From Candidatus Levybacteria bacterium RIFCSPHIGHO2_01_FULL_37_17 (GTDB lineage Bacteria > Patescibacteriota > Microgenomatia > Levybacterales > UBA12049): 64,000 bases of DNA. A program made the position numbers and the translations under genes. Location of the stretch: positions 84,078-148,077 of the forward strand of contig MFNL01000001.1 of NCBI GenBank assembly GCA_001782035.1, written 5' to 3'. Below the pieces are notes generated by a model. The model searched no databases and was not told the DNA's origin. It saw nothing but the letters and a program-made list of their open reading frames with translations. Numbering within the stretch: position 1 is the first letter of the stretch; each line of letters begins with the position of its first letter. This document shows, one piece after another, positions 1,749-42,343 of this stretch.

Positions 1749-3003
1749 GACGCTTCCTCTCTTTTACCTTCTTTTGTTTTTTTTACCAACACAATTTGGA
1801 AAACATTTTTGGCCAGAGTCCGCTTTAGTACAAGGACAGAGAATTGACTACATATCACCAACTGTATATGTAACAGACATTTTAATTTTTTTAATCTTTG
1901 TACTTAGCGCGCGATATATAATTTCAACACTTTTGCAAAAGCACAAGAAACAGCTTTTAATCTTTGTACTTTTTACTCTAACACTTGTTGTTGGAGTATC
2001 GATCTCAAAAAATCCACAAGCAGGAGTCTGGGGAATTTTAAAGCTTCTTGAGTTTACCTTTCTTGGCGTATTTATTTATATAAATAAAAGGTCGTTGAAT
2101 TTGAATACCATTGCTATAATTTTTTCCATGAGTATTATATTTGAGTCTCTCCTTGCAATATTCCAGTACATTAATAAGGGTTCGTTTCAGGGTATATTTT
2201 ATTTCTTAGGAGAACGTGGCTTTAACAGTACAACACCGGGCGTTGCAAATGCTTCTATAGATGGCAATATTATTCTCAGGCCTTACGGAACATTCTCACA
2301 CCCAAATGTTCTAGCAGGATATCTTGTTTTGTCAATGGTAGTTTGTGCCTTGCTTGTTAAAAAGCTTAATAGATATTATCTAATAGCATTTCTGATTGGA
2401 ATATGTGGTGTGTTTATATCCTTCTCCCGCACTGCAATAGTTGCATTAGTTTTATTCATTTTTAGTTTCTTTATAATTTCCATTTACGAAAAATATAAGA
2501 AAGGCAAACTGAATCTTGCTGCTAATAAAAACAATTTACTACTTTTATTGCCACTGCTTTTTATAATAATGTTATTTTTAGGCGGCTTAATATACGGAAG
2601 GTTTCTTAACTTAAATTTTTATGATGAGTCTGTATCTAATCGAGTAGCTCTTGCAAAAGAATCCGTCAGAATGATTGCAGGAAATCCCGTATTTGGGATT
2701 GGGATAAATAACTTTTTTGACAGCCTAAACCCAGGCTTTAAAAATTTTTCAGAGATACAGCCGGTTCACAATATTTTCTTGCTTACCTTTTCGGAGACTG
2801 GGATAATTGGGCTTTCATTCTTAATACTTCTTTTAACTATGGCTGCCAAGAACAATAAGCTTAGCTTCATAGCTGTTTTTGCAGTGATCATTTTGGGAAG
2901 CCTAGATCATTATTTATTAACACTTCAACAGGGACAGCTTATTTTTACCATCTTAATTTCACTTTTTCTTGAGCGTGGTCTTTCTGCTAGAATAGAATTA
3001 TAA
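1672..3003 (+). CDS. O-antigen ligase (Wzy_C)-like polytopic membrane protein; true start probably downstream (~1774, TTG)
   Basis: A multi-TM protein with a PTQFGKHFWP N-terminus typical of O-antigen-ligase-family proteins. The track start overlaps jag and is probably over-extended. Confidence 0.6.
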   Translation: MQMIKKFFLSLWVKEGKEPLSLGQDKTLPLFYLLLFFLPTQFGKHFWPESALVQGQRIDYISPTVYVTDILIFLIFVLSARYIISTLLQKHKKQLLIFVLFTLTLVVGVSISKNPQAGVWGILKLLEFTFLGVFIYINKRSLNLNTIAIIFSMSIIFESLLAIFQYINKGSFQGIFYFLGERGFNSTTPGVANASIDGNIILRPYGTFSHPNVLAGYLVLSMVVCALLVKKLNRYYLIAFLIGICGVFISFSRTAIVALVLFIFSFFIISIYEKYKKGKLNLAANKNNLLLLLPLLFIIMLFLGGLIYGRFLNLNFYDESVSNRVALAKESVRMIAGNPVFGIGINNFFDSLNPGFKNFSEIQPVHNIFLLTFSETGIIGLSFLILLLTMAAKNNKLSFIAVFAVIILGSLDHYLLTLQQGQLIFTILISLFLERGLSARIEL

Positions 3004-3425
3004 TGGCAGACGTATTTGTTTATACAGATGGTGGAGCAAGAGGAAACCCGGGACCTGCTGCAATAGGAGTATACATTGAAAACGGAAGTGGTCAGCCTCT
3101 GTTTCTATCCGGGAAAAAAATTGGGGAAACCACAAATAACATTGCAGAATACACCGCTATTCTTGAGGCATATAACTGGCTCATTGTAAACAAAAACCTA
3201 CTCGATGCTGACGCAAAAATCCATTTTTATATGGATTCTCTTCTTGCATATTCACATATAAGTAGACTTTATAAAATAAAAAATGAAAACTTAAGACAAC
3301 TTGTGTTAGAAATTTGGGAGAAAGAAAAAAACTTGGGTATTCCGGTATTTTATAACCACGTGAGACGTGAAGGAAATAAAAAGGCGGATTTGTTGGTAAA
3401 TCAAGCATTAGATAATTTAATCTGA
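3003..3425 (+). CDS. rnhA: ribonuclease HI
   Basis: N-terminus VYTDGGARGNPGPAAIGV with conserved RNase H catalytic residues; 140 aa. Confidence 0.8.
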   Translation: MADVFVYTDGGARGNPGPAAIGVYIENGSGQPLFLSGKKIGETTNNIAEYTAILEAYNWLIVNKNLLDADAKIHFYMDSLLAYSHISRLYKIKNENLRQLVLEIWEKEKNLGIPVFYNHVRREGNKKADLLVNQALDNLI

Positions 3426-6110
3426 ATGAACTCACCTGCTCTTGTTACAAAAGAATTTAAAAGTGAATTTCCAGTGCTTGTCGTTGATAAAATAGGCATC
3501 CTCGGGGCTGCGCTAGCAGAAAAAATAAAGGATGAGACGCTAGTTATTTTGGTAAGCGCCAAAAAACAAGAAGACCCAAATATTATTCATATACCATATG
3601 AAAGAATTACTCCAAGCATTCCCGATAACACATATTCACACATTTTTCTAATTGACGAAGACGGAGTCTTATCAAAAAGTATGATTACGCCTTTCGTAAA
3701 AAAAGCAGAACACGACGGCTCTGAATTAGTTCTAGTTTTAAGACGAGATATGCTCCAAGATGACTTTGCCGATAGTTTCATTTCTTCCTACGATAAGGCA
3801 AAGATTGTTATAACAGGAGATATTTTTGCTAGCGATTATATTTTTGATTCATCAACAGACATAAATCGTTTTATAAAACATGCAAAAGAAAATAAAAAGA
3901 TAGAAATTGCAGGCGAAGGTTTAAGGCAAACATTCCCCGTTTTTGTCGAAGACGCTGTATGGGGAATACTCCAAGCCGGCTTTATTGAAAAAGACGATAG
4001 AGCTTTTAAAATTTATCCAAGCGGTTATACGCTTCTTTCCATCTCCCGAATTTTACAAAAAATTGATCCGGACCTAAAAATAAACTTTGTAGAAGACAAA
4101 TCGTCACTCCCGAAAGGACAAAATGAGCACCAAGGAAAAATGCTTTTAGATAAAAACTACGACTTGGAAGCAAGGATAAAAAAAATCAAATTTGAAAAGG
4201 CTAAATTTGAAGAAGTCGAGCGCAGAAAAGAGAGCAAACCCTCCATTGAGCTTATTAGATTTAGTGGTCTATCTCGGTTTATTGCAGTAAGTCTTCTAAC
4301 ACTTTTTCTTGTTTTAATCATGCCGATTTTTTTTACTCTTATTTCTTTTTTTGCGGGAGCTCTTCTTTTGCAAGGGGCTAAAATTCAAGTCGAAAAGGGG
4401 CAATTTGAATCATCAAAAAATTACACACAAAGCTCGTACTATGCATTCATATTTTCCCATAGCTCTTTTCCAATTTTCTTAAAAGAGGCAAGCTTTGTAG
4501 GATTGGAAGGAAAAGCGTTAGAGCTTTCAACCAAAATAGATCAAGGAAAAGAAGCATCGTTTGCAATACTAAGTTTTTTTAAAAGCGTAGATAAAATTAA
4601 AAGAATTTTTGATGGCAGCGCTTCTGTTTCGGAAAAAGAATTCAGTGAAGTAGCAGATGATATAAAGCTTTCTTTGGTTTTTTACCAAAAACAGAAAAAT
4701 AATGGAGTCATTCCTGAATCGATAAGTAAAAAATTCGAACCACTTCTGACATTTACCTCTGCAACAATTGAAAGCTGGCCTGAAATTCTGGGATTTAAAG
4801 GGGAAAGAAAGTATTTAATACTGTTGCAAAACAATATGGAGCTAAGAGCTACAGGCGGATTCATAGGCTCTTTTGCTATTACCAGAATTAAAAATGGCAA
4901 ACTTACAAATTTTAAAATTTATGATGTATATGATGCAGACGGACAGCTGAAAGGGCATATTGAGCCTCCATTTGCAATTCGAAGATACCTTAGCTCTCCG
5001 AACTGGTATTTAAGAGATAGTAACTTCGATATCGACTTTTCCCAAAGCGCACAGGCTTCTGCAGTTTTTCTACAAACAGAGCTTAAAGAAACAGTGGATG
5101 GAGTCCTTGCAGTTGACCTCTCATTCGTACGTAGCTTGCTTGAGACTATCGGAGACGTTAAGGTTTTGGATTATAACGAGACAGTCAATTCGGATAACCT
5201 CTTCCAACTAACTCAGGCAAAAGTGGAAGAGAATTTTTTTCCGGGTTCCAAACAAAAAAAAGATTTTCTAAGAAGTTTATATGTTTCAATTCAAACCAAG
5301 CTATCAAGTGATAAAACTACCCCCTATTTAAATGTTCTTCAAAGCGCTATAGCATCGGTTTCTGAAAAGCATATTTTATTTGCGTTTAATAAGGTAAACG
5401 TATCATCGCTTTTTTCAGTAAACGGTTGGGGAGGAACGCTTTTTGACGACAGGAAAAAATCGGATGCAACCATTAATGACTTTGTTGGAATTAATGAATC
5501 TAATTTTGGAGCAAATAAAGTAAATTATTATTTATCAAGAAGTCAGAACTTAAGTACAACAATTGCGGAAAATGGGGAAGTCACAAATGTATTAAAATTA
5601 AGTTATAAAAACAACGCGCCCAAGAGCTTAAACACTAAAGGCTTATATAAAAATTATTTAAGACTTATACTTCCTTTTGCAAGCCAGATTTCAAAAGTAG
5701 AAATAGATGGGATTGAGCAAAGCATTATTCCAGCGGTAACGCAGCCTAGTGTTTATGAGGCAACAAATTTTAAACCCCCTCAGGGACTTGAAATTGAAGT
5801 GACTGAAAATTCGGCAAAGTCTGTTTTCGGAATGTTATTAAACATAGAGCCAGAAGCATTAAAAACCATAACGATAACTTATAAGTTGGCAAGTAAACTT
5901 AACTTGAACCAGGCTAGTTTTAATTATAGTTTAAAAGCCTACAAACAGCCGGGAATTGATAATATTCCTTTTGGTTTCTCACTTAATTTACCAAGTTTTT
6001 TAACAGTTGTTGACTATCCGAAAGAAGCAGGTATTAAATCTAATGGAGCAAGCTTTTCGTCAAGCTTAAGGAAGGATTCAGACTTTATTTTTAATCTTTC
6101 CAAGAAATAG
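3426..6110 (+). CDS. large DUF4012-family protein with an N-terminal Rossmann-like region and one TM segment
   Basis: An 894-aa protein carrying the RATGGFIGSFA motif characteristic of DUF4012, plus a TM helix near residue 290. Confidence 0.5.
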   Translation: MNSPALVTKEFKSEFPVLVVDKIGILGAALAEKIKDETLVILVSAKKQEDPNIIHIPYERITPSIPDNTYSHIFLIDEDGVLSKSMITPFVKKAEHDGSELVLVLRRDMLQDDFADSFISSYDKAKIVITGDIFASDYIFDSSTDINRFIKHAKENKKIEIAGEGLRQTFPVFVEDAVWGILQAGFIEKDDRAFKIYPSGYTLLSISRILQKIDPDLKINFVEDKSSLPKGQNEHQGKMLLDKNYDLEARIKKIKFEKAKFEEVERRKESKPSIELIRFSGLSRFIAVSLLTLFLVLIMPIFFTLISFFAGALLLQGAKIQVEKGQFESSKNYTQSSYYAFIFSHSSFPIFLKEASFVGLEGKALELSTKIDQGKEASFAILSFFKSVDKIKRIFDGSASVSEKEFSEVADDIKLSLVFYQKQKNNGVIPESISKKFEPLLTFTSATIESWPEILGFKGERKYLILLQNNMELRATGGFIGSFAITRIKNGKLTNFKIYDVYDADGQLKGHIEPPFAIRRYLSSPNWYLRDSNFDIDFSQSAQASAVFLQTELKETVDGVLAVDLSFVRSLLETIGDVKVLDYNETVNSDNLFQLTQAKVEENFFPGSKQKKDFLRSLYVSIQTKLSSDKTTPYLNVLQSAIASVSEKHILFAFNKVNVSSLFSVNGWGGTLFDDRKKSDATINDFVGINESNFGANKVNYYLSRSQNLSTTIAENGEVTNVLKLSYKNNAPKSLNTKGLYKNYLRLILPFASQISKVEIDGIEQSIIPAVTQPSVYEATNFKPPQGLEIEVTENSAKSVFGMLLNIEPEALKTITITYKLASKLNLNQASFNYSLKAYKQPGIDNIPFGFSLNLPSFLTVVDYPKEAGIKSNGASFSSSLRKDSDFIFNLSKK

Positions 6111-6939: not shown

Positions 6940-8979
6940 ATGCAAAAGGATGGTGAAATCTATAAAAGTTGGGAAGAGAAGGGTTATTTTAAACCGGAGT
7001 TGCACACAAATGGAAACCCTTATTCCATAATTCTTCCGCCTCCAAACGCCAATGCTCCGCTTCATTTTGGCCACGCTATGTATACGGTTGAGGATATTTT
7101 AATCCGTTACCATAGACTATTAGGCGATAAAACTTTGTGGCTTCCGGGTGCAGATCATGCAGGCTTTGAAACCCAATTTGTTTTTGAAAAAAAGCTTTTG
7201 GAAAAGGGTAAATCCCGCTTTGACTACGATAGAGAAACTCTTTATAAAATGATTTGGGATTTTGCTGCCGAAAATAGACCAGTAATGGAAAACCAGCTTA
7301 AAAGACTTGGTTTTTCACTCGATTGGAGTAGAAGTAAATTTACACTAGAAGAAGATATTATAAAAATAGTTTATAAGACATTTAAGAAGCTTTATGAAGA
7401 CGGTTTGGTTTATAGAGCTGAAAAGCTAGTAAATTATTGTACTTATGATGGCACTTCATTTTCTGATCTCGAGGTTATATATGAAGAGAAAAATTCTCCT
7501 CTTTACTATATAAAGTATGGACCTCTCACTCTTGCAACAACAAGACCCGAGACAAAATTCGGAGATACTGCCGTTGCGGTTAATCCAAGGGACAAGCGTT
7601 ACAAGCAGTATATCGGCAAGGAAATAGAAATTGAGACTGTATTTGGCAAGGCAAAGCTAAAGGTAATTGCAGATGATATGGTTGACCCGGAATTTGGAAC
7701 GGGGGTTGTAAAGATAACCCCGGCACATGATTTCAACGATTTTGAAGCAGGACAGAGACATAATTTGCCAAGCGTTCAAGTAATTGGGTTAGACGGAAAA
7801 ATGAATGAAAAAGCAGGAAAACTCAAAGGGCTATATGTTAAGCAAGCTCGTAAAGCAATCGTAGAGGAAATGCAGAAGAAAGGACTGGTTGAAAAAATTG
7901 ACGAAAGTTACATAAATAGAATAGGAGTTTGCTACAAATGTAAAAACCCAATCGAACCTCTGCCCCTGGAGCAGTGGTTTATAAAAATGGAGCCTTTAGC
8001 AAAATATGCAATCAAGGCTGTAAAAGAGGGCAAATTAAAAATTTATCCCAAGAATTTTGAAAAGCTGTATTTCCAGTTTCTCGAAAACATAAGAGACTGG
8101 AATATAAGTAGGCAAATTGTCTGGGGAATAAGAATTCCAGCTTGGCAAAATAAAAAAACAAGAGAGTGGAAAGTAACAGAAGGCGAGAATCCTGGCGATG
8201 ACTATATTCAGGATAATGACACTTTCGATACGTGGTTTTCGTCCGGACAGTGGCCTTATGCGTCACTCGCGGCTACAAATTCTTTGGAATTTTATCCAAC
8301 AAGCGTTATGGAAACAGGTTATGACATACTCCGCTGGTGGGTGGCAAGAATGATGATGCTTGGTATTTATATGACCGGGAAGCCTCCTTTTAAAGATATT
8401 TTGCTACATGGATTAGTTAATGACCCGTTGGGCAAAAAAATGAGCAAAAGCAAGGGAAATGTAATAGATCCAATTGAAATAGTTGAGCAGTATGGTGCAG
8501 ATACAGTTAGATTTGCGCTTGTTTATGGAAACGCAACCGGAAATGATCAGGCGTTATCTTACACAAAGCTTGAGGCAGCGAAAAAATTTATTAACAAACT
8601 AAGAAACATAGCAAGGTTTGTTGTTGAAATGAAACCGAAGACAAGCTCTAAAGAGGCAGCACAGAGAATAGAGGATATAAAAGTTATGAAAAATTTGGAA
8701 AAAGTCACAAAAGATGTCACCGATGCTTTGGAAAGATATGATTTTAATTTTGCTTTAAATATGCTTTATGAATTTATTTGGCATTATTTTGCAGATGTTT
8801 ATATTGAACAATCTAAAAAAAGAAGGGAAGAAGCGCAACCTTATCTTGAACATATTTTAAAAACTATGCTTATTCTTCTACACCCTTTCATGCCTTTTAT
8901 TACAGAAGAGCTTTATTTGCAGCTTCCAAACCATTTGGAATCAATAATGCTTGAAAAATGGCCAAAAGTAAAAGCTTAA
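6940..8979 (+). CDS. valS: valyl-tRNA synthetase (compact, no long C-terminal coiled coil)
   Basis: HFGHA (HIGH-type) and KMSKSKGN motifs plus the CP1 editing signature TTRPETKFGDTAVAVNP. The track ORF begins at 6811, but the first plausible start is the ATG at 6940 (MQKDGEIYKSWEEKGYF). Confidence 0.8.
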   Translation: MQKDGEIYKSWEEKGYFKPELHTNGNPYSIILPPPNANAPLHFGHAMYTVEDILIRYHRLLGDKTLWLPGADHAGFETQFVFEKKLLEKGKSRFDYDRETLYKMIWDFAAENRPVMENQLKRLGFSLDWSRSKFTLEEDIIKIVYKTFKKLYEDGLVYRAEKLVNYCTYDGTSFSDLEVIYEEKNSPLYYIKYGPLTLATTRPETKFGDTAVAVNPRDKRYKQYIGKEIEIETVFGKAKLKVIADDMVDPEFGTGVVKITPAHDFNDFEAGQRHNLPSVQVIGLDGKMNEKAGKLKGLYVKQARKAIVEEMQKKGLVEKIDESYINRIGVCYKCKNPIEPLPLEQWFIKMEPLAKYAIKAVKEGKLKIYPKNFEKLYFQFLENIRDWNISRQIVWGIRIPAWQNKKTREWKVTEGENPGDDYIQDNDTFDTWFSSGQWPYASLAATNSLEFYPTSVMETGYDILRWWVARMMMLGIYMTGKPPFKDILLHGLVNDPLGKKMSKSKGNVIDPIEIVEQYGADTVRFALVYGNATGNDQALSYTKLEAAKKFINKLRNIARFVVEMKPKTSSKEAAQRIEDIKVMKNLEKVTKDVTDALERYDFNFALNMLYEFIWHYFADVYIEQSKKRREEAQPYLEHILKTMLILLHPFMPFITEELYLQLPNHLESIMLEKWPKVKA

Positions 8980-9344
8980 ACCCACAATTACCGAAGAATT
9001 ACCGAAGAATTACCGAAAAGGGTATTTTGTTGCTAGTTCTAATTTCAATTTTGAGCTTAATCATATTTATTTCCTTAGTTTCGGTTCAGGCATATGATGA
9101 TTTCCAAAAATACCTGGTAATTTCAAAAGAAAGACAAAACTTTTATGAGAAATTAAACTTTTGGAGTTCGATTTTGGATAAGTATCCGGGATATTCAGAC
9201 GCCTCATTTAATATTTCTCTTTTATATTTTCAACTTAATCAATTGGATAAAGCAAGAATTTATCTTGAAAAAACCTTAAGCTTTGACCCAAATTATCCCC
9301 AGGCCGAGAAACTAGAAAAGGAGCTTGAAAAAAGAGGCTATTAG
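8958..9344 (+). CDS. membrane-anchored TPR-like protein; start uncertain (possibly TTG ~9027)
   Basis: One N-terminal TM helix followed by a TPR-like helical region. The track start lies inside valS. Confidence 0.4.
   Translation: MAKSKSLNPQLPKNYRRITEKGILLLVLISILSLIIFISLVSVQAYDDFQKYLVISKERQNFYEKLNFWSSILDKYPGYSDASFNISLLYFQLNQLDKARIYLEKTLSFDPNYPQAEKLEKELEKRGY
8987..9019 (+). repeat. tandem 11-bp repeat (ATTACCGAAGA x2, plus ATTACCGAAAA)
   Basis: Three head-to-tail copies read directly, located between the valS stop and the TM region of the next gene. Confidence 0.8.
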
Positions 9345-10090
9345 GCTTCTTGAGGTTTTTCTTCTGGTTTTTTCTCTTCCTCAGCGCTCTTTTCTTCAGT
9401 CGAAGTTTGTTCTTCGGTTGCAGATTCGCCTTCAGTCCCTGCGCCTTCCGCAGCCTCTCCCGTGGCCTCACCGGCTTCAGCTTTAGCAGCCTCAGCAGCA
9501 GCAGCTTCCTCAGCTGCTTGTTCAAGTGCCTCTTTAGATACCAATTCTTCTATTTTTGCAACGACCTGGTTTAGATCTGATAAGATGGTAACTCCTTGAG
9601 GAACTTTTAGGTCAGATACTGCAATTTGGTCATCAATTTGTGCCAAATGCTCCACATTAACCTCAATTTTTTCAGGCAATTCGGTGGGCAAAGCTTCCAC
9701 CTCAACTTCGTTGGTAATTTCCATTAGAATACCCGTCTTTTCGGTTACAGCTTTTGGTTCCCCAACGAATTCAAGCGGAACATTTGCTTTAACTTTTTCT
9801 TTGAGGTTTACTTGGAAAAAATCTGCGTGCAAAACATTTCCCCTGAAGTCTTTATAAACATTTTGAATTAAAACGGGTATTGTTTTTGAGCCTAATTCTA
9901 AATCAACGAGCGTAGTTTCACCGCTTTCTTTGTACACGTCCATAAAATTTTTTGTCGGAAGCTGAACTGCGGTTGATTTAACTTCTTTTCCATAGACATT
10001 ACCCGGGGTTATTCCATCTCTTCTTAATTTCTTAACTTTTTTGCCTAAAACTTTTCGTTCTTCGACTTTTAATTTAGGGTGCGTAGCCAT
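9341..10090 (-). CDS. rplY: 50S ribosomal protein L25 / general stress protein Ctc, with an acidic Glu/Ala-rich C-terminal tail
   Basis: MATHPKLKVEERKVLGKKVKKLRRDGITPGNVYG is a classic L25 N-terminus. The C-terminus is a low-complexity E/A/K tail. The start is placed at the ATG 10090..10088 rather than the upstream track start. Confidence 0.75.
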   Translation of the reverse strand: MATHPKLKVEERKVLGKKVKKLRRDGITPGNVYGKEVKSTAVQLPTKNFMDVYKESGETTLVDLELGSKTIPVLIQNVYKDFRGNVLHADFFQVNLKEKVKANVPLEFVGEPKAVTEKTGILMEITNEVEVEALPTELPEKIEVNVEHLAQIDDQIAVSDLKVPQGVTILSDLNQVVAKIEELVSKEALEQAAEEAAAAEAAKAEAGEATGEAAEGAGTEGESATEEQTSTEEKSAEEEKKPEEKPQEA

Positions 10091-10151
10091 AATCGTTATT
10101 TTACCTGAAAGCGCTAGGTATGGCAAGTAGAGCGCGTGCTATAATTGAGGC

Positions 10152-10640
10152 GTGAGAATACTAGGGATTGATCCCGGATTTGGAAGATGCGGATGGGCAA
10201 TTCTCGAAATTGCTGGTTCTAAGGCGGAAGCTATAGATTATGGTTGTATCGAAACAGGTTTAAAACTTGCTCCTGAAAAAAGACTAGAGCGGGTTTACGC
10301 CGAAATTTCAAGAATTATTAAAAAATATAAGCCCGAAGTTTTGGCTATCGAAGAACTATTTTTTGGTACAAACACAAAAACCGCACTCGCTGTAGGACAA
10401 GCCCGAGGAGTTGTTCTGCTTGCAGCATCGCAGTACAGTTTAGAAACAAGCGTATATAATCCTTTGCAGGTTAAAATTGCCCTAACAGGGTATGGAAAAG
10501 CGGAAAAAGCACAAGTTGGCCAAATGGTAAAAATATTGCTCAAACTAAAAGAAATGCCAAAACTGGATGATACAACAGATGCATTGGCAGTAGCCCTAAC
10601 TCATGCTTCAAGCTCAAAAATCAATAAGTTGTCTAGGTAG
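10152..10640 (+). CDS. ruvC: Holliday junction resolvase RuvC (GTG start)
   Basis: MRILGIDPGFGRCGWAILE. A TATAAT box lies 6 nt upstream of the start. Confidence 0.85.
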   Translation: MRILGIDPGFGRCGWAILEIAGSKAEAIDYGCIETGLKLAPEKRLERVYAEISRIIKKYKPEVLAIEELFFGTNTKTALAVGQARGVVLLAASQYSLETSVYNPLQVKIALTGYGKAEKAQVGQMVKILLKLKEMPKLDDTTDALAVALTHASSSKINKLSR

Positions 10641-10663
10641 CTTATGCTATAATCAGCTAAATT

Positions 10664-11236
10664 ATGATCGGTTTTTTAAATGGTAAAATTGACCTGCTAC
10701 AAAGGCCAAACGTAATTATCGATGTTAACGGAGTAGGTTACAAAGTTTTAGTTTCGGAAAACGTTTATAAAAACTTAACAGTTGGGCAGAAAATCAAGAT
10801 TTTTACCTACACCTATGTTAGGGATGATGCATTAGAGCTTTTCGGCTTTTTAGAAATTGACGATTTAAAGCTTTTTGAGAGTCTCTTAACAGTTTCTGGG
10901 ATTGGGCCTCGCACTGCACTAAATATATTCTCTTTCGGAGAAAGGCAAAATATAATTGAGGCTATTGTTAAAGGAGACTCATTATTTTTTACTTCGGTTC
11001 CAAGGCTTGGTACGAAAAATGCACAGAGAATAATAATAGAGCTTAAAAACAAAATGGGCGGAGACGGCCTGGTTGATTTATCAGGCAAAGATTTAATTGA
11101 GAATACAGAAGCTATCGAGGCTCTAAAAAACTTTGGATTCTCAGTGGTGGAAGCTCAAAAAGCATTAAGAAACTTAGAATCAGGTCTTTCGACTGAGGAA
11201 AAAATAAAACAAGCGCTTAAATCTCTTGGTAGATAA
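10664..11236 (+). CDS. ruvA: Holliday junction branch migration protein RuvA
   Basis: 190 aa with an OB domain followed by an HhH domain; between ruvC and ruvB. Confidence 0.8.
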
Positions 11237-11238
11237 AA

Positions 11239-12267
11239 ATGACAAAAGATAAAAAATCAAATTTGGAAAAAGAAACGCCTGAGGAAGAGGTTCTTTTTAC
11301 ATCTCTTCGAGCTTCCGCATGGCCTGAATTTTACGGCCAGAAAAACGTAAAACAAGCCCTTAATATTGCAATTTCTGCAGCAAAAAAAAGAAAAGAGCCA
11401 ATTGAGCATATTCTTTTATACGGGCCGCCCGGCCTTGGAAAAACTACATTATCGCACTTAATTGCAAAAGAAATGAATGTTAACATAAGGGTTACATCAG
11501 GCCCAGCAATTGAGCGGGCAGGTGATTTAGCCTCGATTCTTACGAATTTAGAAAAAGGTGATATTTTGTTCATCGATGAGGTTCATCGCCTTAATAAAAT
11601 TGTGGAGGAAACTCTTTACCCGGCAATGGAAGACTATGCGCTGGATATAATAATAGGTAAAGGACCTTCTGCAAGAACCCTGCGGCTTGATCTACCGCAA
11701 TTTACGATTATTGGCGCTACAACTCGAATTGGGCTTATGTCAGCCCCGCTGCGTGACAGATTCGGCGTAATCCACAGGCTGGCATTTTATGAGCCGGATG
11801 AGCTTTCGGAAATAATAAGAAAAGGAGCGATAAAGCTTAAAACAAAAGTAGATAAAGACTCAATTGCAGAAATTGCAACCAGAGCAAGGGGTACCCCAAG
11901 AATTGCCCTTAAATTACTCAAAAGAGTACGGGATTACGCACAAGTACATGGAACAGGTGAAATAGTAAAAGGCTTGACTGATAAAGCTTTAGAGATGCTT
12001 AACGTTGACTCTGTGGGGCTAGATAACAATGACGTAAGATATCTGAAATCAATTATTGAAAAACACGGTGGAGGACCTGTTGGAGTTGAAACTATAGCCT
12101 CCACAATAAGCGAAGATATAGGAACGATCGAGGAAGTAATAGAGCCCTATTTACTCCAAGTTGGATTTCTTAAAAAAACAGCACGAGGTAGAACAGCAAC
12201 ACTTGCAGCCTACAAACATTTGGGAATTGAGCTTCCCAAGGGCTTAAAACAGGGAAAACTCCTCTGA
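11239..12267 (+). CDS. ruvB: Holliday junction branch migration ATPase RuvB
   Basis: Walker [11 protein letters not shown], sensor motifs, 342 aa. Confidence 0.9.
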
Positions 12268-36890: not shown

Positions 36891-37091
36891 ATGGCTGAAA
36901 AAGAAATGAATTATGGGCATCATTGTGGGGGAGGACACTTTCTATTCACAATAGGACTTATTGCAATTGTCTACGGATTGGTGCAATGGGCAATGGTTAT
37001 GTATAACCTACCAACTTATGGAGCCTGGATTTTGGGGGGAGCTTTATTAATTGTTGTTTGGCGGGTAAAGAAAATGATGTGGATGAAATAA
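36891..37091 (+). CDS. small 2-TM membrane protein with an HHCGGGH motif
   Basis: 66 aa. The same TAAGGGGGTGAT RBS context as the previous gene. Confidence 0.45.
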   Translation: MAEKEMNYGHHCGGGHFLFTIGLIAIVYGLVQWAMVMYNLPTYGAWILGGALLIVVWRVKKMMWMK

Positions 37092-37180: not shown

Positions 37181-37393
37181 CTATTTAGTTAAAACAGCCG
37201 AGTAGCCAATCCTTTTTATTATCTGTATTATTTCATCTTCCGAAATTTTCTCTGGATCAAATTTAATATCTGTAGTTGATTTTGCATAGCTGGTTCTTGA
37301 TTCTTGTACCCCATTATCTTCTAGCTCTCCATCTATATCCATTGCGCAACTGGAGCAGTGCATTCCTTGTAGCTTTAGTTTCAGATTTTTCAT
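37181..37393 (-). CDS. copZ: heavy-metal-associated (HMA) copper chaperone
   Basis: GMHCSSCAMDIDGELE, a ferredoxin-like betaalphabetabetaalphabeta metal-binding motif (MxCxxC). Confidence 0.8.
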   Translation of the reverse strand: MKNLKLKLQGMHCSSCAMDIDGELEDNGVQESRTSYAKSTTDIKFDPEKISEDEIIQIIKRIGYSAVLTK

Positions 37394-38418
37394 ATAACCC
37401 TAAATACTCCCTGATACATCCCCATAGAACAGGTGAATAAATAATTACCTTTTTTAAGTTTCGGTAGATTTACTTTCTCTTCTCCGGTGGGCTGCAGGTT
37501 AACGCCTATATTAAGAGCTGGGATTCGAAATGCAATTGAACAGGAGTATGTATTATTTGTTATTAATGAAAGTTCTGTTGGTACACCTTCGCGTAGAGTT
37601 ATAGAATCAGGTTTATATCCAAAAGACTCAACGTTTATAGAAATTTTTTGTACCCCATTTTTAATAGGAGGATAAGAATTTAACATATTTTCAGGGAAAG
37701 AAAAAGGATTAAGAATTGTTAACGCCGATTTTACAGAAATCACCGGTGCGCCCACTCCCACAAGACCCCCGTATATTGAGGAGACCCCTAAAAATATTAA
37801 AATAATTGCTGCTATTTTTAAGAAGTTAAATCTCATTGTTTCTCCTAGTTTGGCGGTTATTACACCTACTCCAAAAAACATGGGAAAAGTTCCCAAAACA
37901 AATGTAGCCATTATTGCCGCTCCTCTTAATCCATTGGAGCTACTTATCGCTAAGGTTTCCATGGCAAGAGTTGTACCACATGGAATTAAAATGGTTAAAA
38001 TTCCCAGTAGGCCCGGAGCAAACAAATCAGCACTCTTAGATTTACTCCTAACGAATTTAGTTATGAACCGTGGTGGTTGAATAACTGCATATCTAAAAAT
38101 TGGATGAATATCTAAAAGATTAAGTGCAATTACAATCATATACATTCCTGCAATAAGCTGCATTGACGATTGTAGGTTTTGAGTAAGGCTTATTACAGAT
38201 CCTAAGCTTCCAAGAATAAATCCTAAAACTGTATAGGCAATAAGCTTTGTCGTTAAAAAAGTCAATGTAGGAAATATTGGATTTGGCGCCTTTTTACCAC
38301 TATCAATATCTTCTTTTTCCCTGGCTGTAATAACAGATGCTAAAAGACCTCCTTGCACAGCTAGACAAGTTAGCCCTCCAACTGTTAAACCGGTTACAAA
38401 AATTACTAAAAGATCCAT
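37390..38418 (-). CDS. polytopic permease (TauE/DsbD_2-like) fused to a C-terminal cupredoxin-like domain
   Basis: N-terminus GLTVGGLTCLAVQGG with ~8 TM helices. The C-terminal ~100 aa are a beta-sandwich carrying Cys/His/Met (YSCSIAF...FTCSMGMYQG). Confidence 0.55.
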   Translation of the reverse strand: MDLLVIFVTGLTVGGLTCLAVQGGLLASVITAREKEDIDSGKKAPNPIFPTLTFLTTKLIAYTVLGFILGSLGSVISLTQNLQSSMQLIAGMYMIVIALNLLDIHPIFRYAVIQPPRFITKFVRSKSKSADLFAPGLLGILTILIPCGTTLAMETLAISSSNGLRGAAIMATFVLGTFPMFFGVGVITAKLGETMRFNFLKIAAIILIFLGVSSIYGGLVGVGAPVISVKSALTILNPFSFPENMLNSYPPIKNGVQKISINVESFGYKPDSITLREGVPTELSLITNNTYSCSIAFRIPALNIGVNLQPTGEEKVNLPKLKKGNYLFTCSMGMYQGVFRVI

Positions 38419-38469
38419 AATACTATTATATAGCTTGCAGACAATGTCTGCCTAATTCTATTGATTTAC

Positions 38470-40530
38470 TCACAATTTCTCTCTTTTCAAAAGAAGCGCA
38501 TTAGCCACAACTATTAATGAAGAAGCGGTCATAAGAAGAGCTGCCCACTCCGGCCTTAGTAGAATTCCTAGCTTATAAAATGCACCTGCTGCAGCAGGTA
38601 TTGTAATAATATTATACCCAGCTGCCCAGAAAAGATTTTGAACCATTTTTGAATTTGTTTTTTGAGAAAGTCTGATTGCTTTCACAACATCTCTAGGGTC
38701 ATTTCTCATGAGAATTATTTCTGCGGACTCTATAGCTACGCCCGTACCTGCACCGATAGCTAGTCCAATGTGAGCTTGCGTTAAAGAAGCTGCATCATTT
38801 ACCCCGTCACCAACCATTGCTACGATATTCCCTTTTTTTTGTAGCTGCTTGATCTTATTGACTTTATCTTTTGGCAAGACATCTGCAAAATAGATATCTA
38901 TGCCTAGTTTCTTCGCGACCAGTTTTGCAACATCTTCATGATCACCTGTTAGCATCGCTGTTTTTATGCCCATCTTTTTAAATGATTCTATTGCTTCTGC
39001 AGATTCTGGCCTTATAATATCTGCAAGTCCAATAGCGCCAATTAACTTTTTATCGATTGCTACAAAAATATAAGTAGATCCCTCAGTTTTCTTGAAAATT
39101 ATTTTTTTATTTCCAATTTTATATTCATCTATGAGAATTTGATTTCCTATCAAAATTTCTTTTCCTGAGAATTTTGCCAGTGCACCTTTGCCGGGAATTG
39201 ATCTAAATTCCTTCACCGCTTCAAGCTTAATTTTTTTGTGTTTTGCGTAATCGATAATTCCCAAAGCAATAGGATGCTGGGAGAAACGTTCGACAGAAGC
39301 AGCCAATTTTAGAATTTCTTCTTTTGAGACTTTGGCAAATGGGATTATGTCTGTGATACCAAATTTACCTTCGGTTAGTGTACCCGTCTTGTCTAAAACT
39401 ATATAGTTAAGCTTTCTTGAAATTTCTAAGGCTTTCATGTCTTTAATTAAAATTCCGTGCTTTGCAGCAAGCGCGGTTGTAATAGTTGTAACAGTAGGAA
39501 TAGCAAGTCCCAAGGCGTGAGGACAGGCTATTACGATAACCGATATGGCTAAAGTTCCTGCAAAAATAAGCCCCTGCGAAGTTGCTAGAGACCAAAATAA
39601 AAAAGTCGATATACCAACAGAAAGAGCTGCGAAAGTCAAAAAGCCTGCTGCCTTATCTGCAATTTTTTGAACCTCTGGTTTTGAATCCTGGGCCTGTCTA
39701 ATGAGCTCCATCATCTGTGAGATTGCAGTCTCATCACCAGTTTTTGTTACCTTAATGGTAAGCGTCCCATCGCTATTTATTGTTCCTCCTATAACACTTG
39801 ATGCCTCACTTTTGTTAACTGGCACAGACTCTCCCGTAATCATCGATTCATTGACTGCGGATACACCTTCTATAACTTCTCCATCAATTGGTATTTTTTC
39901 TCCCGGACGGATTAGGATAAGATCTCCTTTTTTAAGCTCATCAGTTTGAATATCTCTAAGACTCTCCCCATCAATTAGATGCGCTTGTGGCGGAATAAGC
40001 CTAGTAAGCTCTTTTAGAGCACCCGTAGCTCCTCTTACCGCTCTCATTTCTATCCAATGTCCGAATAGAAAAGCCAAAGCCAAGGTCGAAATTTCCCAAT
40101 ATAAACTTTCGCCTGGAAATAGGAACGTGGCGGCAACCGAAAATAAATAACCAGACAATAAAGCTAAAGATACAAGCGTCATCATTCCGTATTTTTTTGC
40201 TCTTATTTCGGATAGACCCATTTGGAACAAGGGGAGTCCTCCCCAAAAAACGATCACAGACGAAAGAACAAAAATTACTATTTCTTGGTAGGGGACACTC
40301 AACGAAAACCTTAACCACTCCTGAATCTTTTCCGAAAGAATTAAAACAAAAAGAGTAAGCGGAAGACTTAGGAAAAAGCGTTTTTTAAAGCTTTTTTCCA
40401 TATCTTTGTGATTAATATCTTCTCGCCCACGTTCTATCGGGACGAGATCCATCCCACACTTAGGACATTTTGAGGACCTTTTGCTTATTATTTCGGGATC
40501 CATCGGACACGTATAAAGACTTTTATGCAT
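38470..40530 (-). CDS. copA: copper-translocating P1B-type ATPase (CPH motif) with an N-terminal CPxxP...CPxCGM metal-binding ribbon
   Basis: DKTGTLT, the CPH transmembrane metal site, the GDGVNDA hinge, and an N-terminal CPMDPE...CPKCGM. Confidence 0.9.
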   Translation of the reverse strand: MHKSLYTCPMDPEIISKRSSKCPKCGMDLVPIERGREDINHKDMEKSFKKRFFLSLPLTLFVLILSEKIQEWLRFSLSVPYQEIVIFVLSSVIVFWGGLPLFQMGLSEIRAKKYGMMTLVSLALLSGYLFSVAATFLFPGESLYWEISTLALAFLFGHWIEMRAVRGATGALKELTRLIPPQAHLIDGESLRDIQTDELKKGDLILIRPGEKIPIDGEVIEGVSAVNESMITGESVPVNKSEASSVIGGTINSDGTLTIKVTKTGDETAISQMMELIRQAQDSKPEVQKIADKAAGFLTFAALSVGISTFLFWSLATSQGLIFAGTLAISVIVIACPHALGLAIPTVTTITTALAAKHGILIKDMKALEISRKLNYIVLDKTGTLTEGKFGITDIIPFAKVSKEEILKLAASVERFSQHPIALGIIDYAKHKKIKLEAVKEFRSIPGKGALAKFSGKEILIGNQILIDEYKIGNKKIIFKKTEGSTYIFVAIDKKLIGAIGLADIIRPESAEAIESFKKMGIKTAMLTGDHEDVAKLVAKKLGIDIYFADVLPKDKVNKIKQLQKKGNIVAMVGDGVNDAASLTQAHIGLAIGAGTGVAIESAEIILMRNDPRDVVKAIRLSQKTNSKMVQNLFWAAGYNIITIPAAAGAFYKLGILLRPEWAALLMTASSLIVVANALLLKREKL

Positions 40531-40675
40531 GATTATTTATATACTTATCAGGATTTTCGTCAAAGCTTTTTTTACAATAAGAGGAGCAAAATACATAAAT
40601 TTTTTCATTATAGACGCTTTGAAATTTGAGATTATTAGAATCAACATCCATTCCACAAACAGGATCTTTTACCAT
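40523..40675 (-). CDS. unannotated YHS-domain small protein (50 aa)
   Basis: Reverse-strand ORF MVKDPVCGMDVD...YVFCSSYCKKSFDENPDKY... carries DPVCGM and a second Cys pair. A strong SD (AGGAGGTGAT) is upstream. Its last codons overlap the copA ATG. Confidence 0.7.
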   Translation of the reverse strand: MVKDPVCGMDVDSNNLKFQSVYNEKIYVFCSSYCKKSFDENPDKYINNHA

Positions 40676-40691
40676 ATAAAATCACCTCCTA

Positions 40692-40964
40692 TTAATTATT
40701 TTTCTTAAATACTTGCATTATTTCCCTGATTGCCTCGTCTTTCTTACCTTTTGAGATCTGGTTTGCAACGCACTTTTTTAAATGGTTTTCTAGAAGAAGA
40801 TTTCCAGTTTCCTTAAGTCCTGATTCTATTGCCTGTATTTGATGCATTATATCTATGCAATAAGCATCTTCATCCATCATTTTGATAACCTTATCAAGAT
40901 GTCCGCGCCCAATCTTTAAGCGATGTGTTACTCTTTCGTGTGTATCACGTGGTCTATATGCCAT
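40692..40964 (-). CDS. csoR: CsoR/RcnR family metal-sensing transcriptional repressor
   Basis: 90 aa. Helical DUF156 pattern with the conserved Cys (YCIDIMHQ) and a His/Cys C-terminal region. Confidence 0.8.
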   Translation of the reverse strand: MAYRPRDTHERVTHRLKIGRGHLDKVIKMMDEDAYCIDIMHQIQAIESGLKETGNLLLENHLKKCVANQISKGKKDEAIREIMQVFKKNN

Positions 40965-40985
40965 ATATCCCCCCTATGGGGATAT
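40965..40985. promoter_or_regulatory. perfect inverted repeat ATATCCCC-CCTAT-GGGGATAT abutting the csoR start; candidate CsoR operator
   Basis: 8-bp arms read directly, with a GC-rich core like known CsoR boxes. TTGACA and a TACCAT -10-like box lie just upstream on the coding strand. Confidence 0.65.
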
Positions 40986-41041
40986 GGTAGCATCTTGAAT
41001 AAACTCCTGTCAAGAGAAGGTGCCTCGGCACTAAAAAGCGG

Positions 41042-41057
41042 TTGGCAAAATTGCCAA
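41042..41057. promoter_or_regulatory. palindrome TTGGCAA-AA-TTGCCAA
   Basis: Perfect 7-bp inverted arms read directly, in the intergenic region upstream of the cop operon promoter. Confidence 0.4.
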
Positions 41058-41069
41058 AACGCATTTTAG

Positions 41070-41267
41070 CTACTGCGATTTTAAATTCACATTAATATCA
41101 CTTGGAATATTAATAGTTGATCCCCTAAAATTCTGTACAATGATGGGCAGTATATATATAAACAATACTGCCATAAATACTATTAACAAAATCACACCAA
41201 GCAAAAAGCCCATTCCGCCTCTAGGGTTTGATGTGTCATTAGGCGGGTTGTTTACTATTGTAGCCAT
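41070..41267 (-). CDS. small single-TM membrane protein
   Basis: 65 aa. A strong SD (AGGAGGTGAAA) lies directly upstream of the ATG. Confidence 0.5.
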   Translation of the reverse strand: MATIVNNPPNDTSNPRGGMGFLLGVILLIVFMAVLFIYILPIIVQNFRGSTINIPSDINVNLKSQ

Positions 41268-41347: not shown

Positions 41348-42343
41348 ATGGTAAGAATGCCTAACATTGTAACCATAGGAGGCGGAACAGGAAGTTATAC
41401 TGCCCTTTACGGCCTTAAAAAATACCCCCTTAAACTAACTGCGATTGTAAACATGGTAGACGATGGAGGTTCAAGTGGCAGGCTTCGTGATGAACTTGGG
41501 GTATTGCCACCGGGGGATATTAGACAGTGTCTGGTGGCATTGGCTGAATCATCTAAACTTCTTCGTGATATGTTCAATTACAGGTTTGAGGATGGAGGAT
41601 TGAGGGGTCATAACTTCGGCAATATATTTCTTTCAACTTTGGAAAAGAAGACTGGAAGCATGAAGAAAGCGATAGCCGAGGTTGGGAAAATATTAAACAT
41701 AAAAGGAAAGGTAGTGCCTATTACATTTACAAAAAAAACTAGTCTTTGCGTAGATCTTGAGGATGGAAAAAATATAGTAGGCGAGACACATATAGATGAA
41801 GTTGAAGCAAAAGAGCACCGTGCCGCTATAAAAAAAATTTACCTAAAGCCGAAAGCGCAGATAAATCCGGATGCAAAACAAGCTTTGGAGAAAGCAGATT
41901 TTATTATAATAGGCCCTGGGGATTTATATACGAGTATAATGCCCAACATCCTTGTAAATAGTGTTCCAGGAATAATAAGAAACTCAAAAGCTAAAAAAAT
42001 TTTTGTCGTTAATCTAATGACAAAATATGGTCACACCACTGGATACGGCGCAAAAAAGCACGTTGAGGAGCTCGAAAAATACCTGGGGAAAAATATTCTC
42101 GATTATGTCCTAGTAAATTCAAAAAAACCCAAAAAGATTACACATTCCTGGTACGAAGAGTTTGAGGAATACCCAGTAGAAGATGACTTAAATGATGAAT
42201 ATAAATATCAAGTTATAAGAGAGAATTTAATAAGGGATGTAATTATAATTCAAAACCCGGTTGATAATAGAAGACGAAGTATTATAAGGCATAACCCGCG
42301 GAAATTAGCAGAAGAAATTCTTACGATAATTTATCCTTCCTAA
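41348..42343 (+). CDS. yvcK: YvcK/CofD-like (UPF0052) gluconeogenesis factor family protein
   Basis: N-terminus IVTIGGGTGSYTALYGLKKY...VNMVDDGGSSGRLR, typical of the YvcK/CofD family. Confidence 0.75.
   Translation: MVRMPNIVTIGGGTGSYTALYGLKKYPLKLTAIVNMVDDGGSSGRLRDELGVLPPGDIRQCLVALAESSKLLRDMFNYRFEDGGLRGHNFGNIFLSTLEKKTGSMKKAIAEVGKILNIKGKVVPITFTKKTSLCVDLEDGKNIVGETHIDEVEAKEHRAAIKKIYLKPKAQINPDAKQALEKADFIIIGPGDLYTSIMPNILVNSVPGIIRNSKAKKIFVVNLMTKYGHTTGYGAKKHVEELEKYLGKNILDYVLVNSKKPKKITHSWYEEFEEYPVEDDLNDEYKYQVIRENLIRDVIIIQNPVDNRRRSIIRHNPRKLAEEILTIIYPS

Follow-up and report, generated by a model that had tools for sequence, protein, structure and literature searches.

What does a permease with a cupredoxin-like domain at its C-terminus contribute to the copper operon of a bacterium that has kept few genes? 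The question is raised by a 64-kb stretch of DNA (the window, in whose coordinates all genes are numbered) from Candidatus Levybacteria bacterium RIFCSPHIGHO2_01_FULL_37_17 (contig MFNL01000001.1, positions 84,078 to 148,077 of the forward strand). A sequence-only reading of the window had described a complete CsoR-controlled copper export operon with an unusual permease-cupredoxin fusion in a host with a reduced genome, and the host is indeed a bacterium of the candidate phyla radiation (CPR; Levybacteria, Microgenomates); the fusion protein is 100% identical to one encoded in a Candidatus Levybacteria genome. We find that both the operon and its predicted regulation are of an ordinary kind. 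As a textbook example of CsoR copper defence the operon adds little on its own, and the value of the locus lies in the fusion together with the HMA gene that follows it. Judged from gene order across related loci, this pair is a separate, phylogenetically conserved module, and it may form a transmembrane relay for Cu(I). The predicted outward topology of the fusion, its obligate HMA partner and the hybrid character of the neighbouring ATPase had no place in the earlier reading.

A textbook copper operon

The five genes lie on the minus strand in the order csoR, YHS, ATPase, fusion and HMA, as had been proposed, and an open reading frame (ORF) was found for each of them.

40964-40692, minus strand: csoR, 90 aa, Pfam Trns_repr_metal (PF02583, E 7e-23)
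40675-40523, minus strand: YHS/TRASH gene, 50 aa, Pfam YHS (PF04945, E 1e-14)
40530-38470, minus strand: P1B ATPase gene, 686 aa, Pfam HMBD, E1-E2_ATPase and Hydrolase
38418-37390, minus strand: permease-cupredoxin fusion gene, 342 aa, Pfam DsbD_2 and Cupredoxin_1
37393-37181, minus strand: CopZ-like HMA gene, 70 aa, Pfam HMA (PF00403, E 1e-11)

The Pfam assignments of all five proteins score above the curated cut-offs. The description of these genes as tightly packed and overlapping is only partly accurate, because gaps of 16 nucleotides (nt) between csoR and the YHS gene and of 51 nt between the ATPase and fusion genes interrupt them; the overlaps of YHS with ATPase (8 nt) and of fusion with HMA (4 nt) are as described. 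That the operon responds to Cu(I) and is regulated by CsoR is highly probable. The name "copper export operon" holds in so far as this is a copper operon of the CsoR type, but export is an assumption for the fusion and CopZ pair.

A CupA-type domain predicted to face outward

The fusion consists of two domains, a membrane part followed by a soluble part.

37750-38418, minus strand: DsbD_2 membrane domain, fusion residues 1-223 (PF13386, E 7.5e-31), six helices in the AlphaFold2 (AF2) model
37393-37662, minus strand: CupA-type Cu(I) domain, fusion residues 253-342, with C293 and C330-S-M332-G-M334

The C-terminal 90 residues match CupA of S. pneumoniae and the metal-binding domain of its CopA (phmmer E 9e-6; family profile E 8e-19). 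The AF2 model of the fusion has a predicted local distance difference test (pLDDT) score of 86 overall and of about 90 over residues 253-342, and its cupredoxin-like beta-barrel superimposes on CupA (4F2E) with a root-mean-square deviation of 1.2 Å and a template-modelling (TM) score of 0.88 in Foldseek; the matches of the model in the PDB were to the cupredoxin domain only. C293 and C330-S-M332-G-M334 align with the Cys...C-G-M-N-M ligands of CupA. All 45 family sequences compared, of 30-82% identity, have C293 and C330, and 43 of them have M332 and M334; no His occupies an invariant or near-invariant position of the domain. The copper ligands that the sequence-only reading had expected to be conserved at the C-terminus are thus in place, but they are not those of the type-1 (His/Cys/His/Met) site that it had envisaged. 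By sequence, profile and structure the domain is almost certainly a Cys2Met2 Cu(I) domain of the CupA type. A type-1 blue-copper site was ruled out because the family conserves no His there; the CupA ligand set is conserved, and the CupA/CopA domain outranked blue copper proteins as a structural match.

Variants of the domain also occur in the family. Five homologs (P0124, P0183, P0225, P0230 and P0264) carry a tandem pair of CupA-type domains, and P0230 ends in addition in a Cys-rich tail (GCPCCG). In ten representatives with shorter matches to the fusion, no other outer domain was found, such as the thioredoxin fold that would favour an electron relay: nine have Cupredoxin_1 or are too short for a further domain, and in the tenth (P0194, 398 aa) some 170 residues at the C-terminus have no Pfam assignment. 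Two loci (L002, 169-432; L029, 3495-3749) contain CupA-like segments, stand-alone or at the N-terminus of an ATPase, upstream of an HMA-ATPase. These loci also encode the fusion, and cytoplasmic and exofacial CupA-type domains may therefore coexist within a single operon.

The membrane domain has the layout of DsbD and CcdA, a core of six helices, the first and fourth of which each contain one conserved Cys. C18 in helix 1 and P146-C147 in helix 4 are invariant, Q22 and T150 nearly so; 38 of the 45 sequences have M153, and either E or M occupies position 154. The Pro-Cys pair is confined to helix 4, helix 1 having T/S-C, and the operon contains no thioredoxin-like gene. The family profile matches the solved CcdA structure 5VKV marginally (E 0.33).

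The orientation of the protein was predicted from its loops and from natural variants. Loops 1, 3 and 5 hold on average 11.8 Lys and Arg residues compared with 1.0 for loops 2 and 4 and the N-terminus, a bias that predicts an N-out/C-out arrangement. Where representatives have an N-terminal extension of at least 40 residues, it adds exactly one hydrophobic segment in 18 of 20 cases. In three of the variants (P0230, P0261 and P0267) an HMA domain without a signal peptide is followed by one extra helix, DsbD_2 and the cupredoxin domain, and in P0225 the order is cupredoxin, helix, Lys-rich loop, helix, cupredoxin. Loop charges and variants together place the CupA-type domain outside and HMA inside. 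It is likely, on this prediction, that the domain is exofacial, that is, on the face opposite to that of pneumococcal CupA.

A conserved module of fusion and HMA genes

The HMA protein of 70 residues has the features of CopZ: a G-M-H-C-S-S-C motif, a hydrophilic N-terminus and no signal peptide. It matches the HMA domains of ATP7B and CopA, and its second-best NCBIfam match is MerTP. Its start codon overlaps the stop codon of the fusion gene (ATGA). We surveyed 80 related loci, 77 of which extend far enough downstream for an HMA gene to be counted. Such a gene lies directly downstream of the fusion, on the same strand, in 74 of the 77, with a median gap of 12 nt and usually with the motif G-M-H-C-x-x-C; in the three N-terminally extended variants described above it is fused to the permease itself. 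A P1B ATPase gene stands directly upstream of the fusion in 43 of 70 loci and somewhere in the locus in 65 of 80, and csoR was found in 33. Since several loci have the module without an adjacent ATPase, and since the ATPase is swapped between close relatives (see below), the two genes appear to be a self-contained functional unit.

The genomic context of the family is soft-metal homeostasis throughout. On a Tsukamurella plasmid (NZ_LR134469; locus L081, 3408-10469), genes for an ATPase, the fusion, HMA, merA and a multicopper oxidase are arranged in this order under a MerR-type regulator. The merA product has 473 residues and no N-terminal HMA domain, and neither merT nor merP is annotated, although annotation in PLSDB is incomplete and their absence is not proven. 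Fusion and HMA may here substitute for MerT, MerP and NmerA. In Deinococcus the module adjoins merB and a MerR gene. Such an arrangement could explain Hg(II) uptake in actinobacterial and Deinococcus mer loci that have no merT or merP. Plasmids of Streptomyces and Mycolicibacterium carry the module with an ATPase and with separate CcdA and TlpA genes, which makes it unlikely that the module is just another CcdA. Three Streptomyces plasmid loci (L083, L089 and L090) have a hypothetical gene of about 135 aa some 110 nt upstream of the fusion, alongside genes for CcdA, TlpA and a CopY-type regulator.

A widespread family under a wrong name

The sequence-only reading had called the fusion unusual, an idea that the cluster and genome counts rule out. 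A word-indexed search with the fusion returned at least 5,268 protein clusters at E <= 1e-5, and the best 120 of the listed clusters all have the two-domain architecture of DsbD_2 and Cupredoxin_1. An exhaustive search of 50%-identity representatives gave 264 clusters at E <= 1e-30 and 1,566 at E <= 1e-10. The fusion is encoded in at least 569 species-representative genomes, mostly of Patescibacteria and Chloroflexota, where it is the standard partner of cop genes, and also in Actinomycetota, Deinococcota and Bacillota. Full-length fusions occur on plasmids of Tsukamurella, Mycolicibacterium, Streptomyces, Deinococcus and Chlorohelix and of a clostridial genome. Reviews report CupA as confined to a few streptococci (PMC7558416, PMC5646241); the CupA-type domain is evidently far more widely distributed than that.

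Databases name this family "sulfite exporter TauE/SafE family protein". The hidden Markov model comparison that the sequence-only reading had suggested, TauE/SafE against DsbD_2, gives a clear answer: residues 1-230 of the fusion have no match to TauE (PF01925) even at E <= 10, and DsbD_2 is the sole membrane family found. We have dropped the TauE/SafE identity, and several thousand protein clusters in at least five phyla carry the wrong label.

CsoR and its predicted operator

The sites that would control the operon lie directly upstream of csoR.

40965-40985, both strands: putative CsoR operator, a perfect 8+8 palindrome ATATCCCC-N5-GGGGATAT of 21 nt next to the csoR ATG
40984-41013, minus strand: promoter-like site TTGACA-18-TACCAT with TG before the -10 hexamer, 10 of 12 consensus matches

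The csoR product falls in the four-helix-bundle family (PF02583, 81 bits against a cut-off of 22.8) and matches the structures 2HH7, 4M1P and 3AAI, with CsoR of M. tuberculosis (2HH7) at E 3e-17. Its Cu(I) fingerprint, Y35, C36, H61, C65 and E81, is in a register identical to that of the M. tuberculosis protein. Judged by these residues, it is a Cu(I)-sensing repressor of the CsoR branch of the CsoR/RcnR family.

The palindrome was located where the sequence-only reading had placed it, adjoining the csoR ATG. The full sequence of the site, ATATCCCCATAGGGGGGATAT, is a G-tract pseudopalindrome of 21 nt, the same in length and type as the consensus ATATACCCCTNAGGGGTATAT of the experimentally defined 21-nt CsoR operator of streptomycetes (PMC3902906). 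It has no second copy in the window even when three mismatches are allowed (0.23 expected). The G-tract probably doubles as the ribosome-binding site of csoR. The promoter claimed to overlap the palindrome is the top promoter-like site of the region, and the last 2 nt of its -10 hexamer lie within the operator; promoter-like matches as a group are not enriched in the region (13 found compared with 14.8 expected from shuffled sequence).

Conservation of the site was judged from the csoR upstream regions of 35 related loci. In most of them the motif reads ATATCCC(C)-N-GGGGATAT or ATATACCC(C)-N-GGGGTATAT, in many the palindrome lies between TTGACA and the csoR start codon, and in the two nearest orthologous operons it likewise abuts the csoR ATG. 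In four loci where csoR-ATPase and fusion-HMA genes diverge (L065, L073, L074 and L078) the box is in the shared intergenic region, and a palindrome resembling the CsoR box precedes one solitary fusion gene (L037). Because the palindrome is phylogenetically conserved, predicted autoregulation by CsoR and predicted control of the fusion module by CsoR are well supported. The autoregulatory control proposed by the sequence-only reading agrees with both the Cu(I) ligands of the protein and the conservation of operator and promoter in orthologous loci.

A hybrid ATPase in an exchangeable position

The ATPase, rather than the fusion, is the unusual part of the operon, in its combination of CPH, an HMBD N-terminus and an MxxSS helix. 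It has the general motif set of P1B copper ATPases (DKTGT, TGE, HP and GDGxND, the last as GDGVND) and scores 571 bits with the TIGR01511 copper-ATPase model of NCBIfam against a cut-off of 397. The definition of CopB-type (P1B-3) ATPases (PMC5552934) calls for CPH in the helix that binds the metal and for GYN(x)4P in the one after it, and both are present (ACPHALG and AAGYNIITIP). In place of the MSxST of P1B-3, however, the last helix carries MTASS, the MxxSS pattern of P1B-1, and in place of a His-rich N-terminus there are 2 His among the first 50 residues and a zinc-ribbon-like HMBD domain, CPMDP...CPKCGM (PF19335, E 3e-11), with neither HMA nor Cupredoxin_1. The CPH motif and the CPxxP...CPxCGM ribbon noted in the sequence-only reading are thus both in the translation. 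The full-length protein matches the CopA structures 3J09 and 3RFU best (E about 1e-140), whereas its isolated ATP-binding domain scores higher with A. fulgidus CopB (255 bits) than with CopA (195 bits). By its motifs and domain matches, the ATPase is a hybrid of the CopA (P1B-1) and CopB (P1B-3) copper subtypes. The view that a CPH ATPase is the less common component is upheld by the related loci, whose neighbouring ATPases comprise 61 with CPC and one with CPH.

The closest ortholog (L087, fusion 82% identical) encodes at 3936-5993 an HMBD/CPH ATPase that is 80% identical to the one in the window. The next relative (L088, fusion 78% identical) has a 741-aa HMA-CopA at 2357-4582 instead. The ATPase slot has therefore been exchanged between near relatives. 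For CPR biology this means that minimal-genome cells retain a five-gene copper system in which the type of ATPase is exchanged and the module is kept.

The YHS/TRASH protein has the Cys pattern C7-x22-C30-x3-C34, which agrees with the TRASH pattern C-x19-22-C-x3-C. Its gene is preceded by a strong ribosome-binding site, AGGAGGTG, and its stop codon overlaps the start of the ATPase gene, with which it is translationally coupled. A stand-alone YHS gene is also present in L087 and, overall, in 17 of the 80 related loci.

Proposed mechanism and rival explanations

Without copper, CsoR tetramers would occupy the 21-nt palindrome over the -10 hexamer, the transcription start and the csoR ribosome-binding region. 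Cu(I) bound at C36, H61 and C65 would release CsoR, and all five genes would be transcribed. The CPH/HMBD ATPase would then export cytoplasmic Cu(I), with the YHS/TRASH protein probably serving as its soluble metal donor. Three thiolate stations, namely the CxxC of the cytoplasmic HMA protein, C18/C147 with Met153 in the middle of the membrane, and the exofacial binuclear Cys2Met2 site of the CupA-type domain, would form a ligand-exchange relay in which Cu(I) crosses the membrane and is never released. The chemistry of each station is of a familiar soft-metal or thiol kind. The favoured direction would be outward, from CopZ to the membrane Cys pair and on to the exofacial CupA domain, which would make the module a chaperone-fed secondary exporter or a hand-off site beside the ATPase.

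A CsoR-repressed copper-defence operon with such a Cys/Met relay is the best explanation of the locus as a whole, although we put its chances at a little less than even. That the relay passes metal and not electrons is slightly favoured, because two of the three stations are metal-binding folds, the partner is a metallochaperone rather than a thioredoxin, and CcdA and TlpA coexist with the module. The outward direction is rather doubtful, and is weakly favoured on the grounds that an excess of copper would induce the module and that its two genes also stand alone as a unit. More broadly, we suggest, with the balance somewhat against it, that fusion and HMA represent a phylum-spanning class of chaperone-coupled thiolate relay for Cu(I), perhaps also for Hg(II) or Ag(I), with the CupA site outside. 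If so, it would be a third way for soft metals to pass the cytoplasmic membrane, next to the P1B ATPases and proteins of the MerT type. It would also contradict the views of CupA as cytoplasmic and as limited to a few streptococci, and the CupA fold would become a widespread outward-facing device and no longer a streptococcal curiosity.

Several points weigh against this mechanism. The single Cys in helix 1 and the single Cys in helix 4 are the exact CcdA signature, and characterised members of the DsbD/CcdA superfamily move electrons, not metals. A passive thiolate relay would have to work against an external copper load with no evident source of energy, and the merA neighbourhood in Tsukamurella and the merB/MerR neighbourhood in Deinococcus fit inward transport of the MerP/MerT kind. 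The topology is a predicted one. Literature searches for DsbD_2 with cupredoxin, for PF13386 and for TauE with cupredoxin and copper returned nothing relevant, and as far as they go the family is probably unstudied.

The Cys pattern, as the hallmark of CcdA and DsbD, makes an electron relay a live rival, though an unlikely one. DsbD_2 would in this case work as CcdA, DsbD or ScsB do and pass reducing equivalents from a cytoplasmic CxxC donor via C18/C147 to C293/C330. The outward, Cu(I)-sequestering CupA domain would thereby be held in the reduced state when copper catalyses oxidative stress, or be enabled to reduce Cu(II) outside the cell. Beyond the DsbD_2 match itself, some homologs also match DsbD_TM; helices 1 and 4 have one invariant Cys apiece, that of helix 4 in a P-C motif, and the marginal profile match is to a CcdA. 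The S1 cysteines of CupA reduce Cu(II) in vitro (PMC5646241, PMC7558416), and exofacial Cu-binding proteins such as S. aureus CopL give resistance (PMC11672702), both of which would suit this reading. It sits poorly, however, with a conserved cytoplasmic partner that is an HMA metallochaperone and not a thioredoxin, and that is fused to the permease in some homologs. A Met and an E/M position are conserved after the helix-4 Cys, the Pro of the CcdA motif PCxxP is missing from helix 1, and dedicated CcdA and TlpA pairs stand beside the module on plasmids.

A similarly low probability attaches to a Mer-like importer, in which the exofacial CupA domain would capture Cu(I), or Hg(II)/Ag(I), and pass it by way of the Cys pair in the membrane to the HMA protein in the cytoplasm. 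The ATPase or, in a mer context, MerA would receive the metal from there, and the role of the importer would be to protect envelope targets or to feed the sensor. Envelope protection or sensor feeding by uptake has been proposed for CopC/CopD, and these uptake genes (copCD) are a precedent inside copper-resistance operons. The three-station thiolate architecture mirrors MerP/MerT/NmerA, the MerTP model is the second-best NCBIfam match of the HMA protein, and the module stands next to a 473-aa merA in Tsukamurella, with no annotated merT or merP, and beside merB and MerR in Deinococcus. On the other hand, in CPR bacteria and Chloroflexota the module is co-transcribed or co-regulated with a copper exporter under a repressor that answers copper excess, and a single-membrane cell that took copper in only to pump it out again would run a futile cycle. 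In the wider LysE/DsbD clan most of the other transporters work as exporters, and the incomplete PLSDB annotation also limits what the missing merT and merP can say. Least probable by far, and very improbable in itself, is a permease with an electron-transferring blue-copper cupredoxin of type 1, or a TauE/SafE exporter of sulfite or sulfonate. The database name and the Pfam call of Cupredoxin_1 for the C-terminal domain speak for it; they are outweighed by the lack of a TauE match at any threshold with DsbD_2 as sole membrane family, by the conserved CupA ligands in a domain without conserved His, by CupA and the CopA metal-binding domain being the best structural matches ahead of blue copper proteins, and by an invariable context of soft-metal homeostasis.

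Neighbouring features

Further features lie within the operon and on either side of it.

38437-38451, both strands: second perfect palindrome, GCAGACA-N-TGTCTGC, within the 51-bp gap 38419-38469 before the fusion gene
36891-37091, plus strand: 66-aa ORF convergent on copZ, two predicted helices and an N-terminal H-H-C-G-G-G-H
41042-41057, minus strand: terminator-like hairpin TTGGCAA-TT-TTGCCAA with a T-rich tail, a consensus match only
41070-41267, minus strand: 65-aa ORF for a single-helix membrane protein, followed by the hairpin and then the csoR promoter
41348-42343, plus strand: CofD/YvcK-like gene, opposite in strand to the cop operon and directly upstream of it

The second palindrome is unique in the window (0.03 expected) and is flanked by TAGGCA and by a TATAAT whose end is 6 nt away from the fusion ATG. 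No Shine-Dalgarno sequence precedes this ATG. The site is possibly an internal promoter with its own operator, from which a leaderless fusion-copZ mRNA would be made. It was kept out of the proposed mechanism because the closest ortholog, L087, lacks it; the gap between ATPase and fusion is just 7 nt there.

The hairpin at 41042-41057 closes the upstream gene for the 65-aa membrane protein, just before the csoR promoter. Neither this ORF nor the 66-aa ORF has a Pfam match or a homolog among the 80 related loci; the latter may encode a small metal-binding membrane protein. A CofD-family gene is also found near the orthologous operon in L087, and this part of the chromosomal neighbourhood may be partly conserved between the two. 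The Levybacteria-related contig of L088 contains, at 7792-11615 on the minus strand, an alpha-2-macroglobulin-like ORF of more than 1,734 aa with internal Pfam matches of the Hint/intein type.

Comparison with known systems

The operon resembles the CsoR-CopZ-CopA systems, such as copZA of B. subtilis, the cso operon of M. tuberculosis and the CsoR regulon of S. lividans, in having a PF02583 repressor with the C-H-C site and Tyr35 and Glu81, a 21-nt G-tract pseudopalindromic operator at the repressor's own promoter, and a regulon with a P1B ATPase and an HMA chaperone. It differs in its operator half-site (TATCCCC, not TACCCC), in an ATPase without HMA domains, in two additional genes, for YHS and for the DsbD_2-CupA fusion, and in an HMA gene that is translationally coupled to the permease and not to the ATPase. 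The pump shares with P1B-3 (CopB) ATPases the CPH and GYN(x)4P motifs and an ATP-binding domain nearest to that of A. fulgidus CopB, whereas its last helix, MTASS, is as in P1B-1 and its N-terminus is an HMBD Cys ribbon, neither His-rich nor HMA.

CopC-CopD/YcnJ and CopB-CopL of S. aureus also combine an extracytoplasmic copper-binding beta-sandwich or lipoprotein with a membrane protein, or fuse it to one, in a copper-resistance locus, and CopL is co-encoded with a CPH-type CopB ATPase (PMC11672702; PMC5947656). The folds and families are unrelated (CopC/CopD and DUF1541 as opposed to CupA-type and DsbD_2), and those systems are without a dedicated cytoplasmic HMA partner. CupA of S. pneumoniae (4F2E, with the CopA N-terminal domain 4F2F) has a single N-terminal helix and hands Cu(I) to the CupA-like domain of CopA at the cytoplasmic face. 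In the window, by contrast, the domain comes after six helices and has a predicted exofacial position, no cupredoxin domain (Cupredoxin_1) is present in the ATPase, and the regulator is CsoR and not CopY.

The fusion belongs to the superfamily of CcdA, DsbD and ScsB and shares with them a core of six helices, single Cys residues in helices 1 and 4 that look essential and, as in DsbD-alpha, an outward beta-sandwich acceptor with a Cys pair; ScsB is the precedent for a thiol transporter with a role in copper tolerance. It departs from them in being DsbD_2 and not DsbD_TM, in lacking a Pro before the helix-1 Cys, in the Met/Glu after the helix-4 Cys, in an HMA partner instead of a thioredoxin, and in an acceptor that is a Cu(I)-binding domain. 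MerP-MerT-NmerA, which follows the logic of the proposed relay, likewise has a soft-metal domain outside, cysteines in the membrane and a cytoplasmic HMA CxxC acceptor, and some homologs of the fusion lie near merA or merB. Here, however, the membrane part is non-homologous (six-helix DsbD_2 compared with three-helix MerT), the outside domain is a cupredoxin and not HMA, and the regulator and neighbours in the window are copper-specific.

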